Translations under genes and position numbers: made by a program | Origin: Myxococcales bacterium | GTDB taxonomy: Bacteria; Myxococcota_A; Polyangia; Polyangiales; Ga0077539 | Length of the DNA: 64,000 nt | NCBI GenBank assembly: GCA_016793325.1 | Contig: JAEUKI010000001.1 | Location: forward strand, 50,625-114,624 | Direction: 5' to 3' | The notes under the pieces: generated by a model | What the model was told of the DNA's origin: nothing | The model's input: the letters and a program-made list of their open reading frames with translations, nothing else | Database searches by the model: none | Part shown: piece after piece, positions 21,276 through 63,513 of the stretch | How the letters are laid out: every line of letters begins with the position of its first letter | Position numbering within the stretch: position 1 is the stretch's first letter

Positions 21276-22282
21276 CGAAATGAAAACGAGCCCCAGTAAT
21301 TGGGCGGTGTCACGATGGGCGCAGGCTCGATGGGCAACGTCGCGAGCACAGCGGGAACGGTGATCCCCACCGCGAGCGCGACGCCTCCGCCGACGAGCAG
21401 CCCGACGCCCCACGCGGGGATTCCGCCGCCGCGTTGGAGCACGACGTCGACGCGCACGATCCCGTGGCGGCCTACGGTGACCGAGCGCGTGACGCGTCGG
21501 TAGCCGGGGGCGTCGACGATGATTCGATGGGTTCCTGGCGTGGCGTCGACGGTCGCGCGTCGCTGGCCCACGAGCCGTCCGTCGAACGTGATGGTCGCGC
21601 CGTCGACGTTGCTCTCGACGGCGACCCGCGCGTCCGCCGCGGTCTGAACGAGCGTGGCCTGCACCGTTCGCCGCTCGCTCCGTTGCAAGTCGAGCTCGAG
21701 TCGCTGCGGGGTGTAGTCGCTCGCGGTCACTTCGATCACGTGCCGGCCGGGATCGACGCGGAGCGCTTCGCCGAGGGACGCGATCGGCCGCCCGTCGATC
21801 GTGGCCGTGGCCTCCGACGGCGCGAGCGCGAACCGAAGCTCTGGAACCTCTGCGCGAACGCCCTCGAGCGCCCGCTGCGTCTCTGCGAGCGACTCGCGCG
21901 TGGCGCGCGCTCCGGGGTTGGCGAGGTAGCGCTCGAACGCTGTGATGGCGTCGAGCAATCGGCCGACGCCTCGGTACGCCATCGCGAGGTTGTACTGAAC
22001 CACCGGCGAGGGTCGGAGCTGCATCGAGCGCTCGAACGCCGTGACCGCGTCCGCGTAGCGACCCTCGTCTGCCGCGGCGATTCCCTGGTCGAAGAGCGAG
22101 CGCGCCTCTGCGAGCTCCGCGGGGCTCGGCTGCGCAGTCTGCGCGGATCGAGCAGGCTGCGCAGATTGCGCAGCGCGGGCGGTGTGCTGCTGCGCAGTGT
22201 GCGCCGACTGCGCGCTCGCGGGCGATTGCGCCACGGTGACCAGCGCGAAGAGCGCTGCGGCGATCGAGTGTTTCACGGTCAT
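21272..22282 (-). CDS. Secreted/membrane TPR plus PEGA-domain protein
   Basis: Signal peptide MTVKHSIAAALFALVTVAQSPASAQ. TPR-like helices (AVTAFERSMQLRPSPVVQYNLAMAYRGVGRLLDAITAFERY). Two PEGA-like units (ATIDGRPI...VIEVTASDYTP; ITFDGRLVG...HRIIVDAPGYRR). C-terminal TM helix. The ATG overlaps the kinase stop (ATGA). Confidence 0.8.
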   Translation of the reverse strand: MTVKHSIAAALFALVTVAQSPASAQSAHTAQQHTARAAQSAQPARSAQTAQPSPAELAEARSLFDQGIAAADEGRYADAVTAFERSMQLRPSPVVQYNLAMAYRGVGRLLDAITAFERYLANPGARATRESLAETQRALEGVRAEVPELRFALAPSEATATIDGRPIASLGEALRVDPGRHVIEVTASDYTPQRLELDLQRSERRTVQATLVQTAADARVAVESNVDGATITFDGRLVGQRRATVDATPGTHRIIVDAPGYRRVTRSVTVGRHGIVRVDVVLQRGGGIPAWGVGLLVGGGVALAVGITVPAVLATLPIEPAPIVTPPNYWGSFSFR

Positions 22283-24012
22283 TCGTACGCTCGCTGCATC
22301 GGCCCGCGGGAGGTGCTCTGGGTCGCGTTGGTCTGCGAATTCGCAGGGGTCGCGGGGCTGCCCGTCCGGGGGCGCGCGGTGGTGGGCCGCGCGGCGCCGG
22401 GGATTCGAACGAGCGCGACCCTGGGCGGCGGCGGGCTGTCGCGAAACTCGATCACGGTCGGTTGGTAGCCGTCCGCGCGGACGCGGAGCGTGTGCTGCGC
22501 GCCGTTCGCGAGAAAATTTCCAGCGAAGGCGCCGACGCCGACGACGCGTCCGTCGATCTCGATGACCGCGTTCGGCGGGTCCGTGCTCACCGCCGCCGCG
22601 AAGGGCTGCGCCATTGGCTGCTCGCGCAGGTCGCTTCGCGCGGGGCCCGTTGATTCTGTGTGCTGCGTGGGCTGCGAGGCTCGCGTCGGCGCGCTGACGA
22701 CGGGTGGAACCTGCGGCTGCGTGCGACCGCGCGCGACGAGGGCGGCGCCTCCGCCGGCGACGAACAAGCCCACGGCCGCGGCGATCGCGAGGCTCGGTGT
22801 GGCTGGTTTTTTCTTGGCCGATGGCGTCTCGACGACGACGCCGGACATGGTCGCGGCGACCGACGGCTGCGCGGGCGAGGGGGTGGGTGAGGGGGCGCGG
22901 GCGTCGACGGTTCCCGCGAGGGTGGCGTCGCGTTCGAGGGGCGCGTCTTCGAAGACGGCGGTCGACGGTCGCGCGTCGTTCGAGCGCTCTGCGTCGGGTG
23001 CATTCGTGCTCTTCGGCGCGCGGGCGTCGAGCGTGGCGGCGTCGTGAATGGCCGCGGCGCCGCTGGTCGCGGGCTCGGAGGGGTCGTCGTTGCTCCGCGG
23101 GTCCGCCGCGCTGATCGCAGTGAATACACGGTCGATCGCGAAGTCCGCGCACTCGCGAAGGGCGCTCGCGAACGAGCCCATCGTCGCGAAGCGCTCTTGG
23201 CGCCCGGGTTCGAGCGCTTTGGCCACGACGTCGCACACGGTCGAGGGTGTTCCCGGGGCGAGGCGATCGAGCCTGGGGGCGCGTTGGGTCAGGATCTTCG
23301 CGAGGACTTCGTTGTAGGACTCGCCGAGAAACGGGCAGCGGCCCGAGAGGCACTCGAAGAGCACGACGCCCATGGACCAAACGTCCGTCTGCGGTCCGAC
23401 CGAGCGCTCACCGCGCGCTTGCTCGGGGGACATGTAGAGGGGCGTTCCGATCGCGGTTCCAGTGCGGGTGACCGAGACGGACTCGCCGTCGTGCTCGGTG
23501 AGCTTCGCGATGCCGAAATCGATGATCTTCACGATCGGCGCGGCGCCCGCGCGCTCGATCACGAACAGGTTGTCCGGCTTGAGATCCCTGTGAACGACGC
23601 CGTTTCGATGCGCCTCCGCGAGCCCTTCGAGCACCGGAAGCAAGAGCGCGCGCGTCTCCTTCGGTGATAGCTGTGTGCGCTCGTCGAGCAGCGATTTCAG
23701 CGGCCGTCCGTCGAGCAGCTCTTGAATGAGAAAGAAGCTCCCGTCCGTCTCGCGACCGACGTCGAGCACCTGCACGATGCTCGGGTGCTGGATCTTCGAC
23801 GCCGCGCGCGCCTCGCGAAGAAAGCGCTCGACCTGCTCGGGGTGCTGCGCGTGCGAAGGCAGCATGAGCTTCAGCGCGACCTTGCGGCCCGTCCACCGAT
23901 TGAGCGCCTCGTACACGGCGCCCATTCCCCCGACGCCGAGGAGGCGATGGAGCTCGTACTTCTCGCCAACGGTGCTTCCGATCAGCGCTTCGAGAGAGGG
24001 CGATGCCGTCAC
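22279..24012 (-). CDS. Ser/Thr protein kinase with a TM segment and C-terminal PEGA domain
   Basis: Hanks motifs are present: GVGGMGAVYEA, VALKLM, HRDLKPDNLF, DFGIAK, GTPLYMSPEQ. A Pro/Ala-rich linker follows, then a TM helix (LAIAAAVGLFVAGGGAALVA) and a PEGA-like end (VIEIDGRVVG...LRVRADGYQP). The start is uncertain; GTG 24012 was chosen. Confidence 0.85.
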   Translation of the reverse strand: MTASPSLEALIGSTVGEKYELHRLLGVGGMGAVYEALNRWTGRKVALKLMLPSHAQHPEQVERFLREARAASKIQHPSIVQVLDVGRETDGSFFLIQELLDGRPLKSLLDERTQLSPKETRALLLPVLEGLAEAHRNGVVHRDLKPDNLFVIERAGAAPIVKIIDFGIAKLTEHDGESVSVTRTGTAIGTPLYMSPEQARGERSVGPQTDVWSMGVVLFECLSGRCPFLGESYNEVLAKILTQRAPRLDRLAPGTPSTVCDVVAKALEPGRQERFATMGSFASALRECADFAIDRVFTAISAADPRSNDDPSEPATSGAAAIHDAATLDARAPKSTNAPDAERSNDARPSTAVFEDAPLERDATLAGTVDARAPSPTPSPAQPSVAATMSGVVVETPSAKKKPATPSLAIAAAVGLFVAGGGAALVARGRTQPQVPPVVSAPTRASQPTQHTESTGPARSDLREQPMAQPFAAAVSTDPPNAVIEIDGRVVGVGAFAGNFLANGAQHTLRVRADGYQPTVIEFRDSPPPPRVALVRIPGAARPTTARPRTGSPATPANSQTNATQSTSRGPMQRAYE

Positions 24013-24128
24013 GAAGGGGGAAAGTCTGCAACGCCTGGGCCAAGTGGGGAGGAGGGACAAGGGGGCCGTGAGTGCGGGGGGACGCCAGCAACGAGTGCAT
24101 CGGGAAGCAGCGGGCGCATGCGACGGGC

Positions 24129-24671
24129 GCATGCAACGAGTGCATGCGCATGGGCGCCGCGCACGGCGGGGCGTCTGCGGTCGAAGCGACCGGACGCCGC
24201 AGAGAATTGCGCATCCGAGCGAGGCGGCCTCACCCCCGCTGCCGCGCGCCCCTCTCCCGCGCGGGCGCGCGGGAGAGGGGCTACTGGGACCGAAGCGTCG
24301 TGGCAGAAAACCAACGGCTGTCTACGATGCACACAAAATCAAAGCCCCTCTCCCGCGATCTCGCGGGAGAGGGGCGCGCGGCAGCGGGGGTGAGGCAAAC
24401 CACCGCGCAAAACGCGTGCTCGGATCGACGTGCCTTCCACGTGGGTTGGGCTGTGACGCTCGATCGCACGACACGCTGGAATGCTCCCCACAGAACTCGC
24501 GAAGCGGTGCGGCACTTTTCGGCGCCTATGGGATCGCGCACTGAGCGCGTTGATTCATCAGTGAATTCACTGGAAGAGACGCGCTTCGCGCGTGACTCCT
24601 CGGCGTCCGGGCGCCTTGGCCCGTGACGCCCCGCCGCGCACGGCGCCCATGCGCATGCACTCGTTGCATGC
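24129..24671. repeat. ~543-bp element bounded by 47-bp inverted repeats with nested internal palindromes
   Basis: 24129-24175 'gcatgcaacgagtgcatgcgcatgggcgccgcgcacggcggggcgtc' is the reverse complement of 24625-24671 with ~4 mismatches. Inside, 24228-24261 pairs with 24362-24395 (34 nt). Two local hairpins share the arm gcccctctcccgcg (24248-24281 and 24344-24375). Confidence 0.8.
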
Positions 24672-24720
24672 GCTCGCTGCCTGCGCTCTGCTCTCCATGC
24701 GCTCTCTGCATGCGCTCGGC

Positions 24721-25158
24721 TCAATTGGCGCTCGTTGCCGGCGCGCACTCGGCGCAGCAGCGACGGAGCGCGCGGATGTTGATGACGTGCGCGACGACGA
24801 GCAGCGACGCTCCGACGATGGACAGCGCGAGCTCGGTGCGCTCGGAGGAGAACTCGATCGCGCGGCTCGCGACGAGCACCGCGGCGCCGGCGCCGAGCGC
24901 GAGGTACACCCGGCGATCGTTGTGCAGCGCGACGCCGCGTCGAAGCGCGATCGTCGCGAGCACGATCGACACCGCGACGAACAGCCGCTCGACCCACTCG
25001 CTCTCAATCACGCGCAACGCGGGAACGGCCGCCGCGACCGCAGCCCCCGCCGCGCAGTGGATCGCGCACAAGACGGACGCGGTCATTCCCACGCGATCGA
25101 GCCGCTCGTCGGAGGCGCGCTCCAAGAGCGACGGTGCGGGGGGAGGGCTCGTGCTCAC
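24721..25158 (-). CDS. MerC-domain membrane protein
   Basis: The GTG at 25158 lies 5 nt after the sigma gene stop. The N-terminus ...LDRVGMTASVLCAIHCAAGAAVAAAVPAL matches the 'LD..G...S..CA.HC' start of MerC-domain proteins. About 4 hydrophobic helices. C-terminal CCAEC. Confidence 0.7.
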   Translation of the reverse strand: MSTSPPPAPSLLERASDERLDRVGMTASVLCAIHCAAGAAVAAAVPALRVIESEWVERLFVAVSIVLATIALRRGVALHNDRRVYLALGAGAAVLVASRAIEFSSERTELALSIVGASLLVVAHVINIRALRRCCAECAPATSAN

Positions 25159-25163
25159 GATGC

Positions 25164-25808
25164 TCAGGCCTTCTGTCGATGGTGTGACGAGTCGGTGTGG
25201 GTTGGCGACGATGACGCCCGGAGCGCCGCGATCCCGTGGGACGCGCAGCAGCCGCGCTCGTCGCAGCCGCACGCGCTGCACTGGGCGGCGCTCGACGTTC
25301 CACAGTGGGCGATCATGCGCTCGCGAAGGGCGCTGCGGGCGCGGGACAATCGCACGGTCGCGTTGTTGACGGTGATCGACAGGGAGCCCGCGGCTTCGTC
25401 GAGCGTCTCGCCTTCGACGTCGATGCGACGAAGGATCTCTGCGTACGACGCAGGGAGCGCTTCGAGCTGCGCGAGCGAGCAGCGACAGCGGTCTTCTTCG
25501 TGCTCGCGCGAAGGCGCCGCGGCGCTCTCGGTGTCCGCGTCCGCATCGATCCACTGCTCGCGACGCGAGAGGGACTTTCGATACAGATCGAGGGCCGTGC
25601 GCGCGACGGCGAAGAGCCACGCGCGAGCTCGCGTCGGGTCACGGAGCGTCGACGACTTCTCCCACGCGCGCTCGAGCGTCGCGGCGAACACCTCGTCGGC
25701 CGCGGCGTCGTTGGGCGTTCGACGACGCACATAGCCCCAAATCGACGAGCGATGCTCGGCGAGCATCGCCTCCCACGCGGCGCGATTGGGTGTCGAGTCG
25801 TCGTTCAT
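25164..25808 (-). CDS. ECF sigma-70 factor with a Cys-rich C-terminal extension (CorE-like)
   Basis: Sigma-2 region (EVFAATLERAWEK...ARAWLFAVARTALDLYRK) and sigma-4 region (LPASYAEILRRIDVEGETLDEAAGSLSITVNNATVRLSRARSALR). A CRC motif sits in the linker. The tail HCGTSSAAQCSACGCDERGCC has 6 Cys. No anti-sigma gene is adjacent. Confidence 0.85.
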   Translation of the reverse strand: MNDDSTPNRAAWEAMLAEHRSSIWGYVRRRTPNDAAADEVFAATLERAWEKSSTLRDPTRARAWLFAVARTALDLYRKSLSRREQWIDADADTESAAAPSREHEEDRCRCSLAQLEALPASYAEILRRIDVEGETLDEAAGSLSITVNNATVRLSRARSALRERMIAHCGTSSAAQCSACGCDERGCCASHGIAALRASSSPTHTDSSHHRQKA

Positions 25809-25824
25809 CGGGGCCGTGTGCCTC

Positions 25825-25989
25825 TCAGGTACGGCGGGCGCGGGCGGCGTCGCATCCGCACGAGGCGGGGCATCCGCAGTCGGGTGGGCACTTGCACGTC
25901 GGGCCGCAGCAGCACTCGCCCTCGGGGCGCGGTTGGTTGCACTTGCAGGTTCCGGTGTTGCAGCAGGGGCAGGCGTTCTTCTCGGTCAT
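25825..25989 (-). CDS. Metallothionein-like Cys-rich small protein (54 aa, 14 Cys)
   Basis: Hand translation: MTEKNACPCCNTGTCKCNQPRPEGECCCGPTCKCPPDCGCPASCGCDAARARRT*. ATG at 25989-25987, TGA at 25827-25825. A purine-rich 'gaaagagag' lies 6-14 nt upstream. GC3 is about 89%, as in real genes here. The stop is 16 nt before the sigma ATG. It is not in the ORF track because it is under 60 aa. Confidence 0.7.
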   Translation of the reverse strand: MTEKNACPCCNTGTCKCNQPRPEGECCCGPTCKCPPDCGCPASCGCDAARARRT

Positions 25990-26415
25990 GATGGGTCTCT
26001 CTTTCGATGAGTTGGTTGGGGTTCGCCGAGGTAGACACCCGAGGAGGCGGGATTCTTACACGGGGCGAAGGTGAAAAACGTCGAGCGCGAAAGTGTCTGC
26101 GAAATGGCAGGCGAGAGTGCAGCACCGCAGCAAGCGAGCGGAGCGCGGCGGCAAGCGGGCTACGGCGCGGCAGCAAGCACTCATCATTCGTTACCTGCGT
26201 CGAAGCATACGGCCCGAGAAACACATGGCTAGAGGGCAAGCCTGAGGCTCGACCTCTGGCCGTGTGACTCGGCCATCGATGAGGCCACTCGCCCCCTGCG
26301 CATGTGCGTGCCCCGCGACGACGACTGCCTGCGCCTGCGCTCGCAACATGATTGTGTGGTCTCCGTCCGCCGCCTTGCGTTCGTGTGTCGCGGCTCGTTA
26401 CGATCCCGTCACTCC

Positions 26416-27222
26416 ATGGCAACACCGAAGCGAGGGGCACGCGGCGCGGCCCCGAAGAAGAAGCCCGCGGCTCGCGCTGCGAAGACCACCACCCTCACCA
26501 TCGCCTCGATTCGCGCGAGCATCGTGGCGCTCTCGCGCAGCGACTTGCCCGAGAAGCTGCGCTGCTCGGTGAGCGACCTGCTCTTTCACGCGGGGCGGCT
26601 TCGCCGCAGCGCGAAGAAGCTACGCGAGGAGCTCTTGGCCAACAGCAGGCTCAAGCCCGCGGTGATCGACTCGCTGCCGTTCTGCATCGAGGTGCTCGAA
26701 GAGGCGGAAGACGAGTGGCAGACCCTCCGCAGCAAGGGCGCGCCGAAGGCGCTGAAGGACGCGCGTATTGCGGCGGCCAAGCTCCGCGGCGTCGCTGTCA
26801 AAGCGCTGCGCCACTTCTGCGAAGAGGACAACGAGCTGCAGGTGCGGCTCAACGAGATCATGGAGGGCGACGGAGACGCCGACCTCGTGGACGACTTGAA
26901 GAAGCTCGCGCCGTTGGTCGACGCCAACTGGGACGCGATCAGCGCAGAGAAGAAGCTCCCGCGCGACAAGAGCGACGCGTATCGCAAGCGCGCGGCCCAG
27001 CTCGAGGAGCTGCGGCTCGCCAACGAGCCGACGCCCGAAGCGAAGCGCGCGCTCGAGTTTCGCGACAAGGCGTTCTTCTACTTGCTCGACGCCGAACGCG
27101 AGATTCGCAAGTGCGGGCGCTACGCGTTCAGCGAGGAGCCGAAGCTGGCCGAGCTGTTCGCGGACCCGTTCGGGTCGAGCGGCGGGTCGAGCAACAATGG
27201 CTCGGCGCCGCCGGCGACGTGA
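26416..27222 (+). CDS. Hypothetical helical protein with a Lys/Ala-rich N-terminus
   Basis: MATPKRGARGAAPKKKPAARAAKTT..., followed by a Leu/Glu/Lys-rich region that looks all-helical. Composition is ordinary and unlike the mirror frames. I recognise no family. Confidence 0.6.
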   Translation: MATPKRGARGAAPKKKPAARAAKTTTLTIASIRASIVALSRSDLPEKLRCSVSDLLFHAGRLRRSAKKLREELLANSRLKPAVIDSLPFCIEVLEEAEDEWQTLRSKGAPKALKDARIAAAKLRGVAVKALRHFCEEDNELQVRLNEIMEGDGDADLVDDLKKLAPLVDANWDAISAEKKLPRDKSDAYRKRAAQLEELRLANEPTPEAKRALEFRDKAFFYLLDAEREIRKCGRYAFSEEPKLAELFADPFGSSGGSSNNGSAPPAT

Positions 27223-61245: not shown

Positions 61246-63513
61246 ATGACTTCGTTGAGGCTTGCTCTTGCGATCGTGACCGTCGCGGCCCTCGCTGCGT
61301 GCGGCGGCCGCCCCGTGCTGCGCGGACCCGATGACGGCTCCGCGGGCGACGGCTCGATGATGGACTCGATGATCGCCGACGATCGCGTGGTCCCTCCCAA
61401 CGAGGGGGGCCTCGTGTGCGGCGCCAACGAGGTCCGCTGCGGCGATCGTTGCGTCGACCCTCGGTCGGACGCGATGAATTGTGGTGCCTGCGGCGTCACG
61501 TGCGCCGCCGGCCAGGTGTGCAGCTCGGGCCGCTGCTCGGCCGACTGTTCGCCGGGCCAGACGCGGTGCGGAAGCTCGTGCGTCGACACGCAGAGCGACA
61601 ACGCGAACTGCGGCGCGTGCGGGACGATCTGCCCCGTCGGCCAGAGCTGCAACCGCGGGACGTGCGGCTGTCCGATGGGCCAGCTCTCGTGCGGCGGGGC
61701 GTGCGTCGACCCCCGATCGGACCCGATGAATTGTGGTGCCTGTGGAGCGACCTGCCCCGCGGGCCAGGTGTGCAACGCCGGCGCGTGCGCGGCGATGTGC
61801 ACAGCGCCCCTCGTCAACTGCGGCGGGGCGTGCGTCGACACGCAGAGCGACAACGGCAACTGCGGCGCGTGCGGCGGGCGGTGCACGGGCGGGACGAGCT
61901 GCTCGGGCGGGGCGTGCGCGTGCCCGACGGGCCAGACGTTGTGCGACGGGATGTGCGTGGATCCGCGGTCGAACCCCTCGCACTGCGGCGGCTGCGGGAT
62001 GTCCTGCGCGACGGGCCAGGTGTGCGCGGCGGGGACGTGCGCCGCCGCGTGCCCGCCCGGTCGAACGATGTGCGGCGGGGCGTGCGTGGACACGCAGTCG
62101 GACAGCTCGAATTGTGGTGTCTGCGGGACGACATGCTCGGGCGGGACCGCGTGCGTCGCCGGCGCCTGCGCGTGCCCTCGCGGCGGCGCGCTCTGCGGCG
62201 GGGTGTGCACGGACGTGACGACGGACGTTCGCAACTGCGGCGGGTGCGGGATGCTCTGCGCGATGGGCCAGGTGTGCGCGGCGGGGCGCTGCGTGGCGAT
62301 GTGCCCGACGGGGACGTTGCTGTGCGGCGGCGCGTGCGTCGACGCGCAGATGGACCCGATGAATTGTGGTGCGTGCGGCGTGGCGTGCACGGGCGGCGCT
62401 GTGTGCGCGGGCGGCGCCTGCAGTTGTCCGACGGGGCAGGTGCTCTGCGCGGGGCGCTGCGTGGACGTTCGTTCGGACGCGGCGAACTGCGGGATGTGCG
62501 GCGCTGCGTGCATGCCGGGCGCGAGCTGCGTCGCGGGCGTGTGCATGGGCATGGGGATGTGCCCGCCCGGCACCGTGAGCTGCGGCGGAACCTGCGTGGA
62601 CACCCAGAGCGACCGGGCCAACTGCGGGGCGTGCGGCCGCGCGTGCGCGGCGGGCGAGACGTGTCGCGCGGGCGTGTGCGCCTCGACGATGATCTCGTGC
62701 CCGATCGGCTCGACGCTGTGCGGGGCGCGGTGCGTGAGCACGCTGCTCGACCCGATGAATTGTGGTGCGTGCGGGACGGCGTGCGCTGCGGGGCAGGTGT
62801 GCCAGCTCGGCCGCTGCGTGGCGTCCATGACGATGTGCTCGGCGCCGACGAGCAACTGCGGCGGGGTGTGCCTCAATACGCAGATCGACCCGCGCAACTG
62901 CGGCGCGTGCGGAAACGTCTGCCCCACGGGACAGACCTGCGAGATGGGCGCGTGCCGCGCTCCGGTCGTGATGTGCCCGATGGGCACCACCAACTGCGGC
63001 GGCCGCTGCACGGTCACCTCGGTGGACCCGTTGAATTGTGGTGCGTGTGGAACGGCCTGCGCGATGGGGCAGTTCTGCCGCGACGGGATGTGCGTCTCTC
63101 CGACGGGGATGTGCCCGCCGTTGACGACCAACTGCAGCGGCGTGTGCACCAACACGCAAGTGGACCCGAGCAACTGCGGCGGCTGCGGGACGCGCTGCAC
63201 GACGGGGCAAGTGTGCTTGCTCGGCCGCTGCCAGACGACGGGGATGATGTGCCCTCCGACGACCACCAACTGCAGCGGGGTGTGCACCAACACGCAAGTG
63301 GACCCGAGCAACTGCGGGGCGTGCGGGATGCGCTGCGCGATCGGGCAGGTGTGCGTCCTCGGGATGTGCCGCGGCGGAATGATGATGTGCCCGCCGGGCT
63401 TCTCGACGTGCAGCGGGATGTGCGTCAACACGCAGATCGATACGCGCAACTGCGGCGGGTGCGGGATGGCGTGTCGACCTGGGCAGTTCTGCCTGCTCGG
63501 TCGTTGCCGCTGA
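61246..63513 (+). CDS. Lipoprotein made of ~16 tandem Cys-rich repeats (C..G...CGG.CVD.Q.D..NCG.CG..C..GQ.C..G.C; Stig1-like)
   Basis: Lipobox VTVAALAAC. The 'NCGxCG' motif occurs 16 times at a 37-45-aa period. The ATG lies 14 nt after the ompA-like stop. The long antisense ORFs (60918-63449, 60949-63576) are mirror artefacts. Confidence 0.85.
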   Translation: MTSLRLALAIVTVAALAACGGRPVLRGPDDGSAGDGSMMDSMIADDRVVPPNEGGLVCGANEVRCGDRCVDPRSDAMNCGACGVTCAAGQVCSSGRCSADCSPGQTRCGSSCVDTQSDNANCGACGTICPVGQSCNRGTCGCPMGQLSCGGACVDPRSDPMNCGACGATCPAGQVCNAGACAAMCTAPLVNCGGACVDTQSDNGNCGACGGRCTGGTSCSGGACACPTGQTLCDGMCVDPRSNPSHCGGCGMSCATGQVCAAGTCAAACPPGRTMCGGACVDTQSDSSNCGVCGTTCSGGTACVAGACACPRGGALCGGVCTDVTTDVRNCGGCGMLCAMGQVCAAGRCVAMCPTGTLLCGGACVDAQMDPMNCGACGVACTGGAVCAGGACSCPTGQVLCAGRCVDVRSDAANCGMCGAACMPGASCVAGVCMGMGMCPPGTVSCGGTCVDTQSDRANCGACGRACAAGETCRAGVCASTMISCPIGSTLCGARCVSTLLDPMNCGACGTACAAGQVCQLGRCVASMTMCSAPTSNCGGVCLNTQIDPRNCGACGNVCPTGQTCEMGACRAPVVMCPMGTTNCGGRCTVTSVDPLNCGACGTACAMGQFCRDGMCVSPTGMCPPLTTNCSGVCTNTQVDPSNCGGCGTRCTTGQVCLLGRCQTTGMMCPPTTTNCSGVCTNTQVDPSNCGACGMRCAIGQVCVLGMCRGGMMMCPPGFSTCSGMCVNTQIDTRNCGGCGMACRPGQFCLLGRCR

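Follow-up and report, generated by a model that had tools for sequence, protein, structure and literature searches.

Metallothioneins (MTs) are rare in bacteria, and the recent literature on them is essentially confined to two groups, SmtA/BmtA and MymT. SmtA/BmtA proteins use His as well as Cys, in Cys4 and Cys3His/Cys2His2 ligand sets, adopt a zinc-finger-like fold and are controlled by an ArsR/SmtB-type repressor that is usually encoded divergently. MymT is a mycobacterial Cu(I) MT of about 53 amino acids (aa), induced by metal and controlled by RicR, a CsoR-type repressor. The wider class includes the fungal and crustacean Cu/Cd-MTs and the Tetrahymena Cd-MTs, which carry CCC motifs. In Synechococcus (smtA-smtB) and Anabaena (nmtA-azuR) the MT gene stands beside the gene of its own metal sensor (PMC8790569). 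Metal can also be sensed by extracytoplasmic function (ECF) sigma factors of the CorE-like type, whose hallmarks are a CxC motif within the linker that joins the sigma2 and sigma4 domains and a C-terminal Cys-rich domain with about 6 Cys in 20-38 residues (PMC4937300, PMC6851896). Both hallmarks are essential for the activity of CorE and CorE2 of Myxococcus xanthus (PMC4937300, PMC6851896), which operate without an anti-sigma factor (PMC4937300, PMC6851896, PMC8999054); the targets of CorE are Cu ATPases and a multicopper oxidase, and that of CorE2 is a CDF pump. Here we analyse a stretch of 64,000 nucleotides (nt; hereafter the window) from a Myxococcales bacterium of the order Polyangiales (contig JAEUKI010000001.1, positions 50,625 to 114,624), in which a small gene for a Cys-rich, MT-like peptide directly precedes the gene of a CorE-like sigma factor.

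The best explanation of the comparative sequence data is that this gene opens a small operon and encodes a cytoplasmic metal-thiolate peptide, whose family is confined to Polyangiales (Myxococcota) and had not been described before. We further consider it reasonably probable that the peptide is an MT-like metal sink transcribed by its own CorE-like, metal-activated and self-regulated sigma operon. The MT class and the CorE-type sigma factors are both known, and what is new is the lineage-restricted MT-like family together with its regulatory pairing. The gene and its ribosome-binding region are as follows.

25825..25989, minus strand: gene for the Cys-rich metallothionein-like peptide (54 aa, 14 Cys), seen as an open reading frame (ORF) with its translation, relatives, purifying selection and a match in the nr database
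25997..26005, minus strand: purine-rich Shine-Dalgarno-like gaaagagag, 7 nt 5' of the ATG, with GGAGG or AAGGAGA at the same position in homologous loci

The ORF runs from an ATG to a TGA and translates as MTEKNACPCCNTGTCKCNQPRPEGECCCGPTCKCPPDCGCPASCGCDAARARRT, a peptide of about 5.5 kDa whose sequence contains no signal peptide and no hydrophobic segment at the N-terminus or elsewhere. A first-pass annotation, made from the letters of the window, had proposed the same 54-codon minus-strand ORF, and our translation reproduces it letter for letter. Its counts survived recalculation as well: 14 of the 54 residues are Cys (25.9%) and Phe, Trp, Tyr and His are absent, the G+C content of third codon positions is 0.89 (given there as about 89%), the Shine-Dalgarno-like stretch is present 7 nt from the ATG, and the stop lies 16 nt ahead of the next gene, whose ATG is at 25808. 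The Cys residues occupy positions 7, 9, 10, 15, 17, 26, 27, 28, 32, 34, 38, 40, 44 and 46, an arrangement that divides into an N-terminal CxCC-x4-CxC block with 5 Cys, a Cys-free linker and a C-terminal CCC-x3-CxC-x3-CxC-x3-CxC block with 9 invariant Cys. The CxCC, CxC and CCC motifs are thus as described earlier, but the further CxC motifs number three and not four. The view that the gene was unannotated and easily missed has to be abandoned, since the exact 54-aa protein is already in NCBI and NCBI nr, encoded on a contig of 120,132 bp, and all named relatives had been called as genes, under the name "hypothetical protein".

Relatives of the peptide were collected with several kinds of search. 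The nearest, found by a word-indexed search, is likewise 54 aa long, 80% identical and from a Polyangiales metagenome-assembled genome. When 1.84 billion representatives were searched exhaustively with HMMER, 7 relatives were found, and profile searches extended the family to some 35 clusters (90% identity), whose members measure 52-62 aa with the exception of one chimera on a contig of 545 nt. Another 17 loci came from a metagenome scan, and a scan of a genome collection with N-terminal patterns returned only a locus that was already known. Every named member comes from Polyangiales (Labilithrix, Minicystis, Sandaracinaceae or "Polyangiales bacterium"), and the known members are all from metagenome-assembled or uncultured organisms of this order, which would explain why the family has escaped study so far.

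Conservation within the family is concentrated on the Cys residues and on the C-terminal block. In an alignment of 38 sequences, 12 Cys columns and that of G29 are invariant, and the remaining two Cys columns, like G24 and E25, are conserved in at least 90%. Indels are confined to the N-terminus and the linker, so that the family can be written as M-x(5-8)-CxC-x(1-2)-C-x(3-4)-CxC, 8-11 Cys-free residues and G-E-CCC-G-P-x-CxC-x3-CxC-x3-CxC, with CCCG-x2-CxC-x3-CxC-x3-CxC as the core common to the relatives. Cys makes up 23-26% of the members, aromatic residues are found in none of 20 distinct genes, and His occurs in three of them, as a single residue in each. The first-pass annotation had named conservation of the Cys positions among Myxococcota relatives as a check on the gene, and the positions are indeed kept.

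Substitutions follow the pattern of a coding sequence. Between the window and its nearest relative we counted 14 synonymous and 11 non-synonymous codon changes, distributed over codon positions 1, 2 and 3 as 7, 7 and 18, and over residues 24-52 the proportion becomes 11 to 1, which is the synonymous bias that had also been put forward as a check. The ratio of non-synonymous to synonymous substitution rates (dN/dS, Nei-Gojobori) lies between 0.15 and 0.36 in 7 of 8 pairs, dS being saturated in the eighth. Frameshifts or stops in homologous loci would have spoken against the gene, and 21 of the 22 distinct loci keep the peptide frame intact. In the remaining one, L020, a 1.2-kb metagenome contig, the peptide lacks its usual stop and the downstream sigma gene is degraded. 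The overlapping ORFs, earlier dismissed as junk, have no support as genes, since the substitution pattern fits the peptide frame. The invariant Cys, low dN/dS, third-position bias, conserved Shine-Dalgarno region and intact ORFs together indicate that this is almost certainly a genuine protein-coding gene under purifying selection. One further match lies apart from the family. In L029 (764-811 of contig JACCDO012325871.1, which is AT-rich and does not look myxobacterial) the motif ECCCGPVCNCGDNCQC is found inside a much larger ORF that runs on into His-rich motifs (IHYHGM, NHPHPM) resembling a multicopper oxidase; only 16 residues match the peptide, and this could be convergence or a domain fusion.

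Members of the family have the properties by which MTs are recognized: a mass below 10 kDa (52-62 aa), a high Cys content in CxC and CC motifs, absence of aromatic residues and little His. Known families were not recovered. The peptide matched no family in Pfam or NCBIfam at E <= 1, and when 26 members were compared with Pfam at E <= 10, PF02069 (Metallothio_Pro, the SmtA/BmtA family) was unmatched in all of them. The earlier opinion that the peptide is unlike SmtA/BmtA is consistent with this and with its having neither the His nor the aromatic residues found in SmtA/BmtA. Among the eukaryotic MT families of Pfam (PF00131, PF02067 and others), only the dipteran Metallothio_5 (PF02067) was touched, by 3 of the 26 members and non-significantly (best E = 0.17), so that of the proposed likeness to eukaryotic-type MTs the Cys pattern is what remains; "eukaryotic-type" should be read as describing a Cys-only CxC/CCC pattern and nothing more. 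A profile search of the PDB with the family gave no match at E <= 10. In the AlphaFold2 (AF2) model, whose confidence is low (pLDDT 66), a 7-residue C-terminal helix is the only regular secondary structure, and a Foldseek search of the PDB with this low-confidence model also returned nothing. The absence of a regular fold in the model would fit a fold templated by metal. As judged from these comparisons, the peptide appears to be MT-like by composition and motif and to stand outside every MT family in Pfam or PDB.

The division into 9 and 5 Cys suggests one or two metal-thiolate clusters. In mammalian MTs the beta-domain binds metal as M(II)3Cys9, and because the C-terminal block has the same number of Cys, the analogy suggests about 4-5 divalent ions, or a larger number of Cu(I) ions, per peptide. 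The family resembles MTs as a class in its small size, a Cys content of about 25%, the absence of aromatic residues, the near absence of His and the CxC/CCC motifs, but differs from known MTs in being bacterial, limited to Polyangiales and without detectable homology in Pfam or PDB. With MymT, which has fewer Cys and contains His, it shares the character of a small, lineage-restricted, Cys-rich bacterial peptide, a comparison drawn from the description of MymT.

The gene that follows the peptide gene on the same strand encodes a sigma factor; its identity, like the rest of the genomic context, had gone unnoticed when the MT-like gene itself was correctly picked out.

25164..25808, minus strand: CorE-like (ECF44/ECF238-type) ECF sigma factor, 214 aa, with Pfam Sigma70_r2 (PF04542) and Sigma70_r4_2 (PF08281), a CRC linker and a Cys-rich C-terminus

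This protein consists of sigma2 and sigma4 only, carries CRC in the linker between them and ends in a tail, HCGTSSAAQCSACGCDERGCC, with 6 Cys, so that it has in common with CorE and CorE2 the domain architecture, the linker CxC and the 6-Cys C-terminal domain. Its best NCBIfam match is SigZ, below the equivalog cut-off, and SigZ is a member of ECF238 (PMC7826278). The sigma factor is 63% identical to the partner of the nearest relative, in which the Cys motifs are kept, and all 9 full-length partner sigmas that we read, that of the window included and those of L019 and L030 among them, contain a linker CxC (CAC, CTC, CQC or CRC in the other eight) and a Cys-rich C-terminal domain; the pattern CGT[DSE]S..C..C.C[DE] of this domain is conserved in the partners. 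By all these sequence features the partner gene encodes a CorE-like sigma factor, and members of this class are direct sensors of Cu, Zn or Cd. A one-residue rule (Ala185 in CorE, Cys174 in CorE2) separates the Cu-responsive CorE from the Cd/Zn-responsive CorE2 (PMC4937300). For the present locus the candidate metals would be Cu, Zn/Cd and Hg.

The pairing of the peptide with a CorE-like sigma factor is conserved. A sigma gene lies directly 3' of the peptide gene, with a gap of 0-130 nt or an overlap, in about 17 of the 21 distinct loci; the pairing spans Polyangiaceae, Labilitrichaceae and Sandaracinaceae, and the remaining neighbours vary from locus to locus. No membrane anti-sigma gene adjoins the sigma gene in the loci examined, where the peptide gene is its only conserved neighbour. 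In four loci (L003, L007/8, L021 and L028) the peptide gene is found alone, with no adjoining sigma gene. A truncated partner was seen in L026 (1850-2119), where most of sigma2 and the CxC linker are gone and sigma4 and the Cys-rich domain are kept; it resembles MXAN_0974, a protein composed of sigma4 and the Cys-rich domain only (PMC4937300).

Functionally, the nearest known architectures are smtA/smtB and nmtA/azuR, in which, as here for a putative one, a sequestering peptide is encoded beside a dedicated metal sensor. Whereas the SmtA/BmtA regulators are repressors, the regulator at the peptide locus would be an ECF sigma activator, encoded downstream and co-transcribed. The word "metallothionein" does not occur in PMC3107203, PMC4937300 and PMC6851896 or elsewhere in the CorE/CorE2 papers and the metal-ECF review that were consulted, and a full-text literature search found no link of MTs to myxobacteria or to CorE-like sigma factors.

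Upstream of the peptide gene, we identified a conserved candidate promoter.

26032..26060, minus strand: candidate ECF-type promoter TGTAAG-N17-TGTCTA, with the -35-like element at 26055-26060 and the -10-like element at 26032-26037, ending 42 nt before the ATG

The upstream regions of the window and of its nearest relative have almost nothing in common except CGTGTAAGA-N15-GGTGTCTACCTCGGCGAAC. Of 22 distinct upstream regions in the family, 21 have the motif TG[TC]AAN-N16/17-[CT]GTC at 50-84 nt 5' of the ATG, where the background frequency in the same loci is 0.011 per 150 nt; in its extended form the motif reads TGTAAG-N16/17-yGTCT. The copy at 26032-26060 is the only clean one in the window, with none expected in shuffled sequence, and the motif also precedes all four stand-alone peptide genes. 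A scan of 24500-26500 for sigma-70 promoters and intrinsic terminators found nothing, and a search of 24000-26500 against Rfam gave only two sub-threshold matches to miRNA families, which were taken as chance. The two blocks, an AAC/AAG-type -35 and a CGTC-type -10 about 17 nt apart, have the shape of an ECF promoter, and the assignment is made by this shape. When a motif is conserved upstream of an ECF operon, it is accepted as a predictor of the target promoter of that same sigma factor (PMC7826278), and the peptide gene is probably transcribed by the adjoining one. The presence of the motif at the stand-alone copies suits an output of the regulon better than a dedicated sigma-bound regulator. 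The Polyangiales sigma factors described here appear to be autoregulated from a conserved promoter and to have an MT-like partner, which would distinguish them from CorE and CorE2.

Some details of this region deserve mention on their own. In the three closest loci (the window at 26025-26045, minus strand, L001 and L003) conservation runs past the -10-like element, as GGTGTCTACC[TG][CG]GGCGA. The -10-like element is TGTC in the window, L001, L003 and L011 and CGTC in Labilithrix-type loci, a variation that roughly tracks the similarity of the sigma factors; it hints at co-evolution of sigma factor and promoter, or at an additional operator. Upstream of the promoter, a divergent ORF of 306 aa (26302-27222, plus strand) has a Lys/Ala-rich N-terminus and no significant match in Pfam or NCBIfam, and it is absent from the homologous locus L001.

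These elements can be joined into a working model. An excess of thiophilic metal (Cu, Zn/Cd or Hg) would load the Cys sites of the sigma factor and activate it, and the holoenzyme would then start transcription at TGTAAG-N17-yGTCT before the peptide gene, raising the levels of both peptide and sigma factor in a positive autoregulation. The 14 thiolates of the peptide, 9 in the C-terminal and 5 in the N-terminal block, would sequester the metal until the accumulating peptide outcompetes the sigma factor for it, and the response would be switched off by negative feedback. In this genome a co-transcribed MerC-family protein, described below, may in addition bring metal across the inner membrane to the sink, as suggested by analogy with mer operons, in which MerC/MerT importers supply a cytoplasmic detoxifying protein. 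In its most ambitious form, the model makes the peptide a true multi-metal MT of an independently evolved bacterial family that acts as an off-switch by draining the activating metal from the Cys-rich domain of the sigma factor; we regard this form as possible but doubtful. If it were true, this would be the first ECF sigma factor set by competition with a co-transcribed MT, and the locus would be a natural sequestration cassette combining a MerC importer with an MT sink.

Several points weigh against the metal-sink model. No sequence or fold likeness of the peptide to known MTs was found in Pfam or the PDB, so that its assignment comes from composition, motifs and context, and the case for translation, metal binding and sigma dependence is a computational one. 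The most divergent locus, L030 (Sandaracinaceae), is devoid of the promoter motif. Autoregulation is not a given for the CorE group, being partial in CorE and absent in CorE2 (PMC6851896). Metal-transport neighbours are inconsistent among the other loci, and the MerC gene occurs in the window and in no other homologous locus. Finally, the two genes overlap or stand 3-35 nt apart in a tight and conserved pairing, which would suit a regulatory partner of the sigma factor as well.

Such a regulatory role is the alternative closest to the metal sink: the peptide might act mainly on the sigma factor, as a metal-dependent anti-sigma factor, a co-factor or a metallochaperone that delivers metal to its Cys-rich domain or strips metal from it. 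Adjacent and often translationally coupled genes in about 17 of 21 loci, among otherwise variable neighbours, are typical of sigma/regulator pairs; peptide and sigma factor have thiolate chemistry in common, and CorE-like factors have no known anti-sigma factor and are reset in ways only partly understood. Against this, four loci have the peptide gene alone, under the same promoter and with no adjoining sigma gene, CorE and CorE2 need no anti-sigma factor, and an order with the peptide gene first is unusual for sigma/anti-sigma operons. An anti-sigma factor of the zinc-binding (ZAS) type was rejected, since the motif HxxxCxxC is missing (the window peptide has neither His nor CxxC) and the AF2 model, with just its 7-residue helix, shows no helical anti-sigma fold. 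On balance we find a mainly regulatory peptide unlikely, while noting that it overlaps with the metal-sink model, whose negative-feedback step is a weak form of the same idea.

The remaining explanations take the peptide for something other than a metal ligand or a regulator. Its small size and very high Cys content, in a group as rich in secondary metabolism as the myxobacteria, recall the precursor of a modified or secreted peptide, either a ribosomally synthesized and post-translationally modified peptide (RiPP) of the SCIFF/ranthipeptide type or a disulfide-rich secreted one. We rejected this origin as very improbable, because the neighbourhood lacks any conserved maturase (radical-SAM enzyme, cyclase, protease or exporter), the sigma gene being the sole conserved neighbour, and because there is no signal peptide and no leader/core layout, conservation peaking instead over the whole C-terminal block, Gly and Pro included. 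A similarly slim chance is given to a regulatory leader, that is, an upstream ORF whose Cys codons tie translation of the sigma factor to the supply of cysteine or thiols while the peptide itself has no function. The position directly 5' of a regulator, the frequent translational coupling and the 14 Cys codons are what one would look for in a leader, but 52-62 codons are long for attenuation, conservation extends to the non-Cys residues (G24, E25, G29, P30 and the Pro/Gly of the spacers) and to the precise distances between the Cys, dN/dS being 0.15-0.36, and the stand-alone copies have no downstream sigma gene to control, and on these grounds the leader was rejected too. GC-rich genomes do yield many spurious ORFs, and several overlap 25825-25989, yet a chance ORF is refuted by the comparative data (some 35 clusters of relatives, invariant Cys, third-position bias, low dN/dS, and a conserved Shine-Dalgarno region and promoter) and its probability is negligible.

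Returning to the peptide as an MT-like metal sink, its importance would lie on both sides of the pairing. A third bacterial family, unrelated in sequence, Cys-only, with a eukaryote-like pattern and restricted to one lineage, would widen the view of how thiophilic metals are buffered, and the pairing gives the poorly understood CorE-type class a conserved target, a candidate promoter and an idea of how the sensor is reset. The trio of peptide, sigma factor and promoter, with MerC added in the window, also represents a compact natural set of parts for metal biosensing or bioaccumulation.

In the window, the sigma gene is followed by one for a putative metal transporter.

24721..25158, minus strand: MerC-family membrane protein, 145 aa (Pfam PF03203, E = 5e-21, 75.7 bits against a cut-off of 27.6, full model 1-108)

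The gene, probably the third in the operon, starts with a GTG 5 nt past the sigma stop; an ATG at 25086 is an alternative start. The protein carries CAIHC near its N-terminus and CCAEC near its C-terminus. The locus resembles mer operons in that a membrane protein of the MerC family, with Cys pairs, appears to be co-transcribed with a thiol-rich acceptor and a metal-responsive regulator, but it differs from them in having no MerA, MerR or MerP, in that the acceptor would be a sequestering peptide and not a reductase, and in that the arrangement is found at the window locus only. MerC is outside the conserved module.

The MerC stop (24721) and the start of the next gene (24132) are separated by a segment of about 570 nt (24114-24686), with 91-nt inverted terminal arms, 84% complementary, and two GC-rich, near-perfect palindromes (24248-24281 and 24344-24377); the segment could be an element like a miniature inverted-repeat transposable element (MITE), or it could provide strong hairpin terminators for the peptide-sigma-MerC operon. 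The product of the next gene (22279-24132, minus strand) is a Ser/Thr protein kinase of 617 aa that carries a PEGA domain at its C-terminus. In L001, L007, L010 and L011, too, Ser/Thr kinases are encoded close to the peptide-sigma pair, which may be a coincidence, as these kinases are abundant in myxobacteria. Towards the end of the window, a long ORF (61417-63500, plus strand, to the window end) contains at least 16 copies of a tandemly repeated unit of about 43 aa that follows the pattern CxxGxxxCGGxCVDxxSDxxNCGACGxxCxxGQxCxxGxC. These repeats are unrelated to the peptide family and resemble the "Myxococcus cysteine-rich repeat" known from large secreted proteins of myxobacteria.

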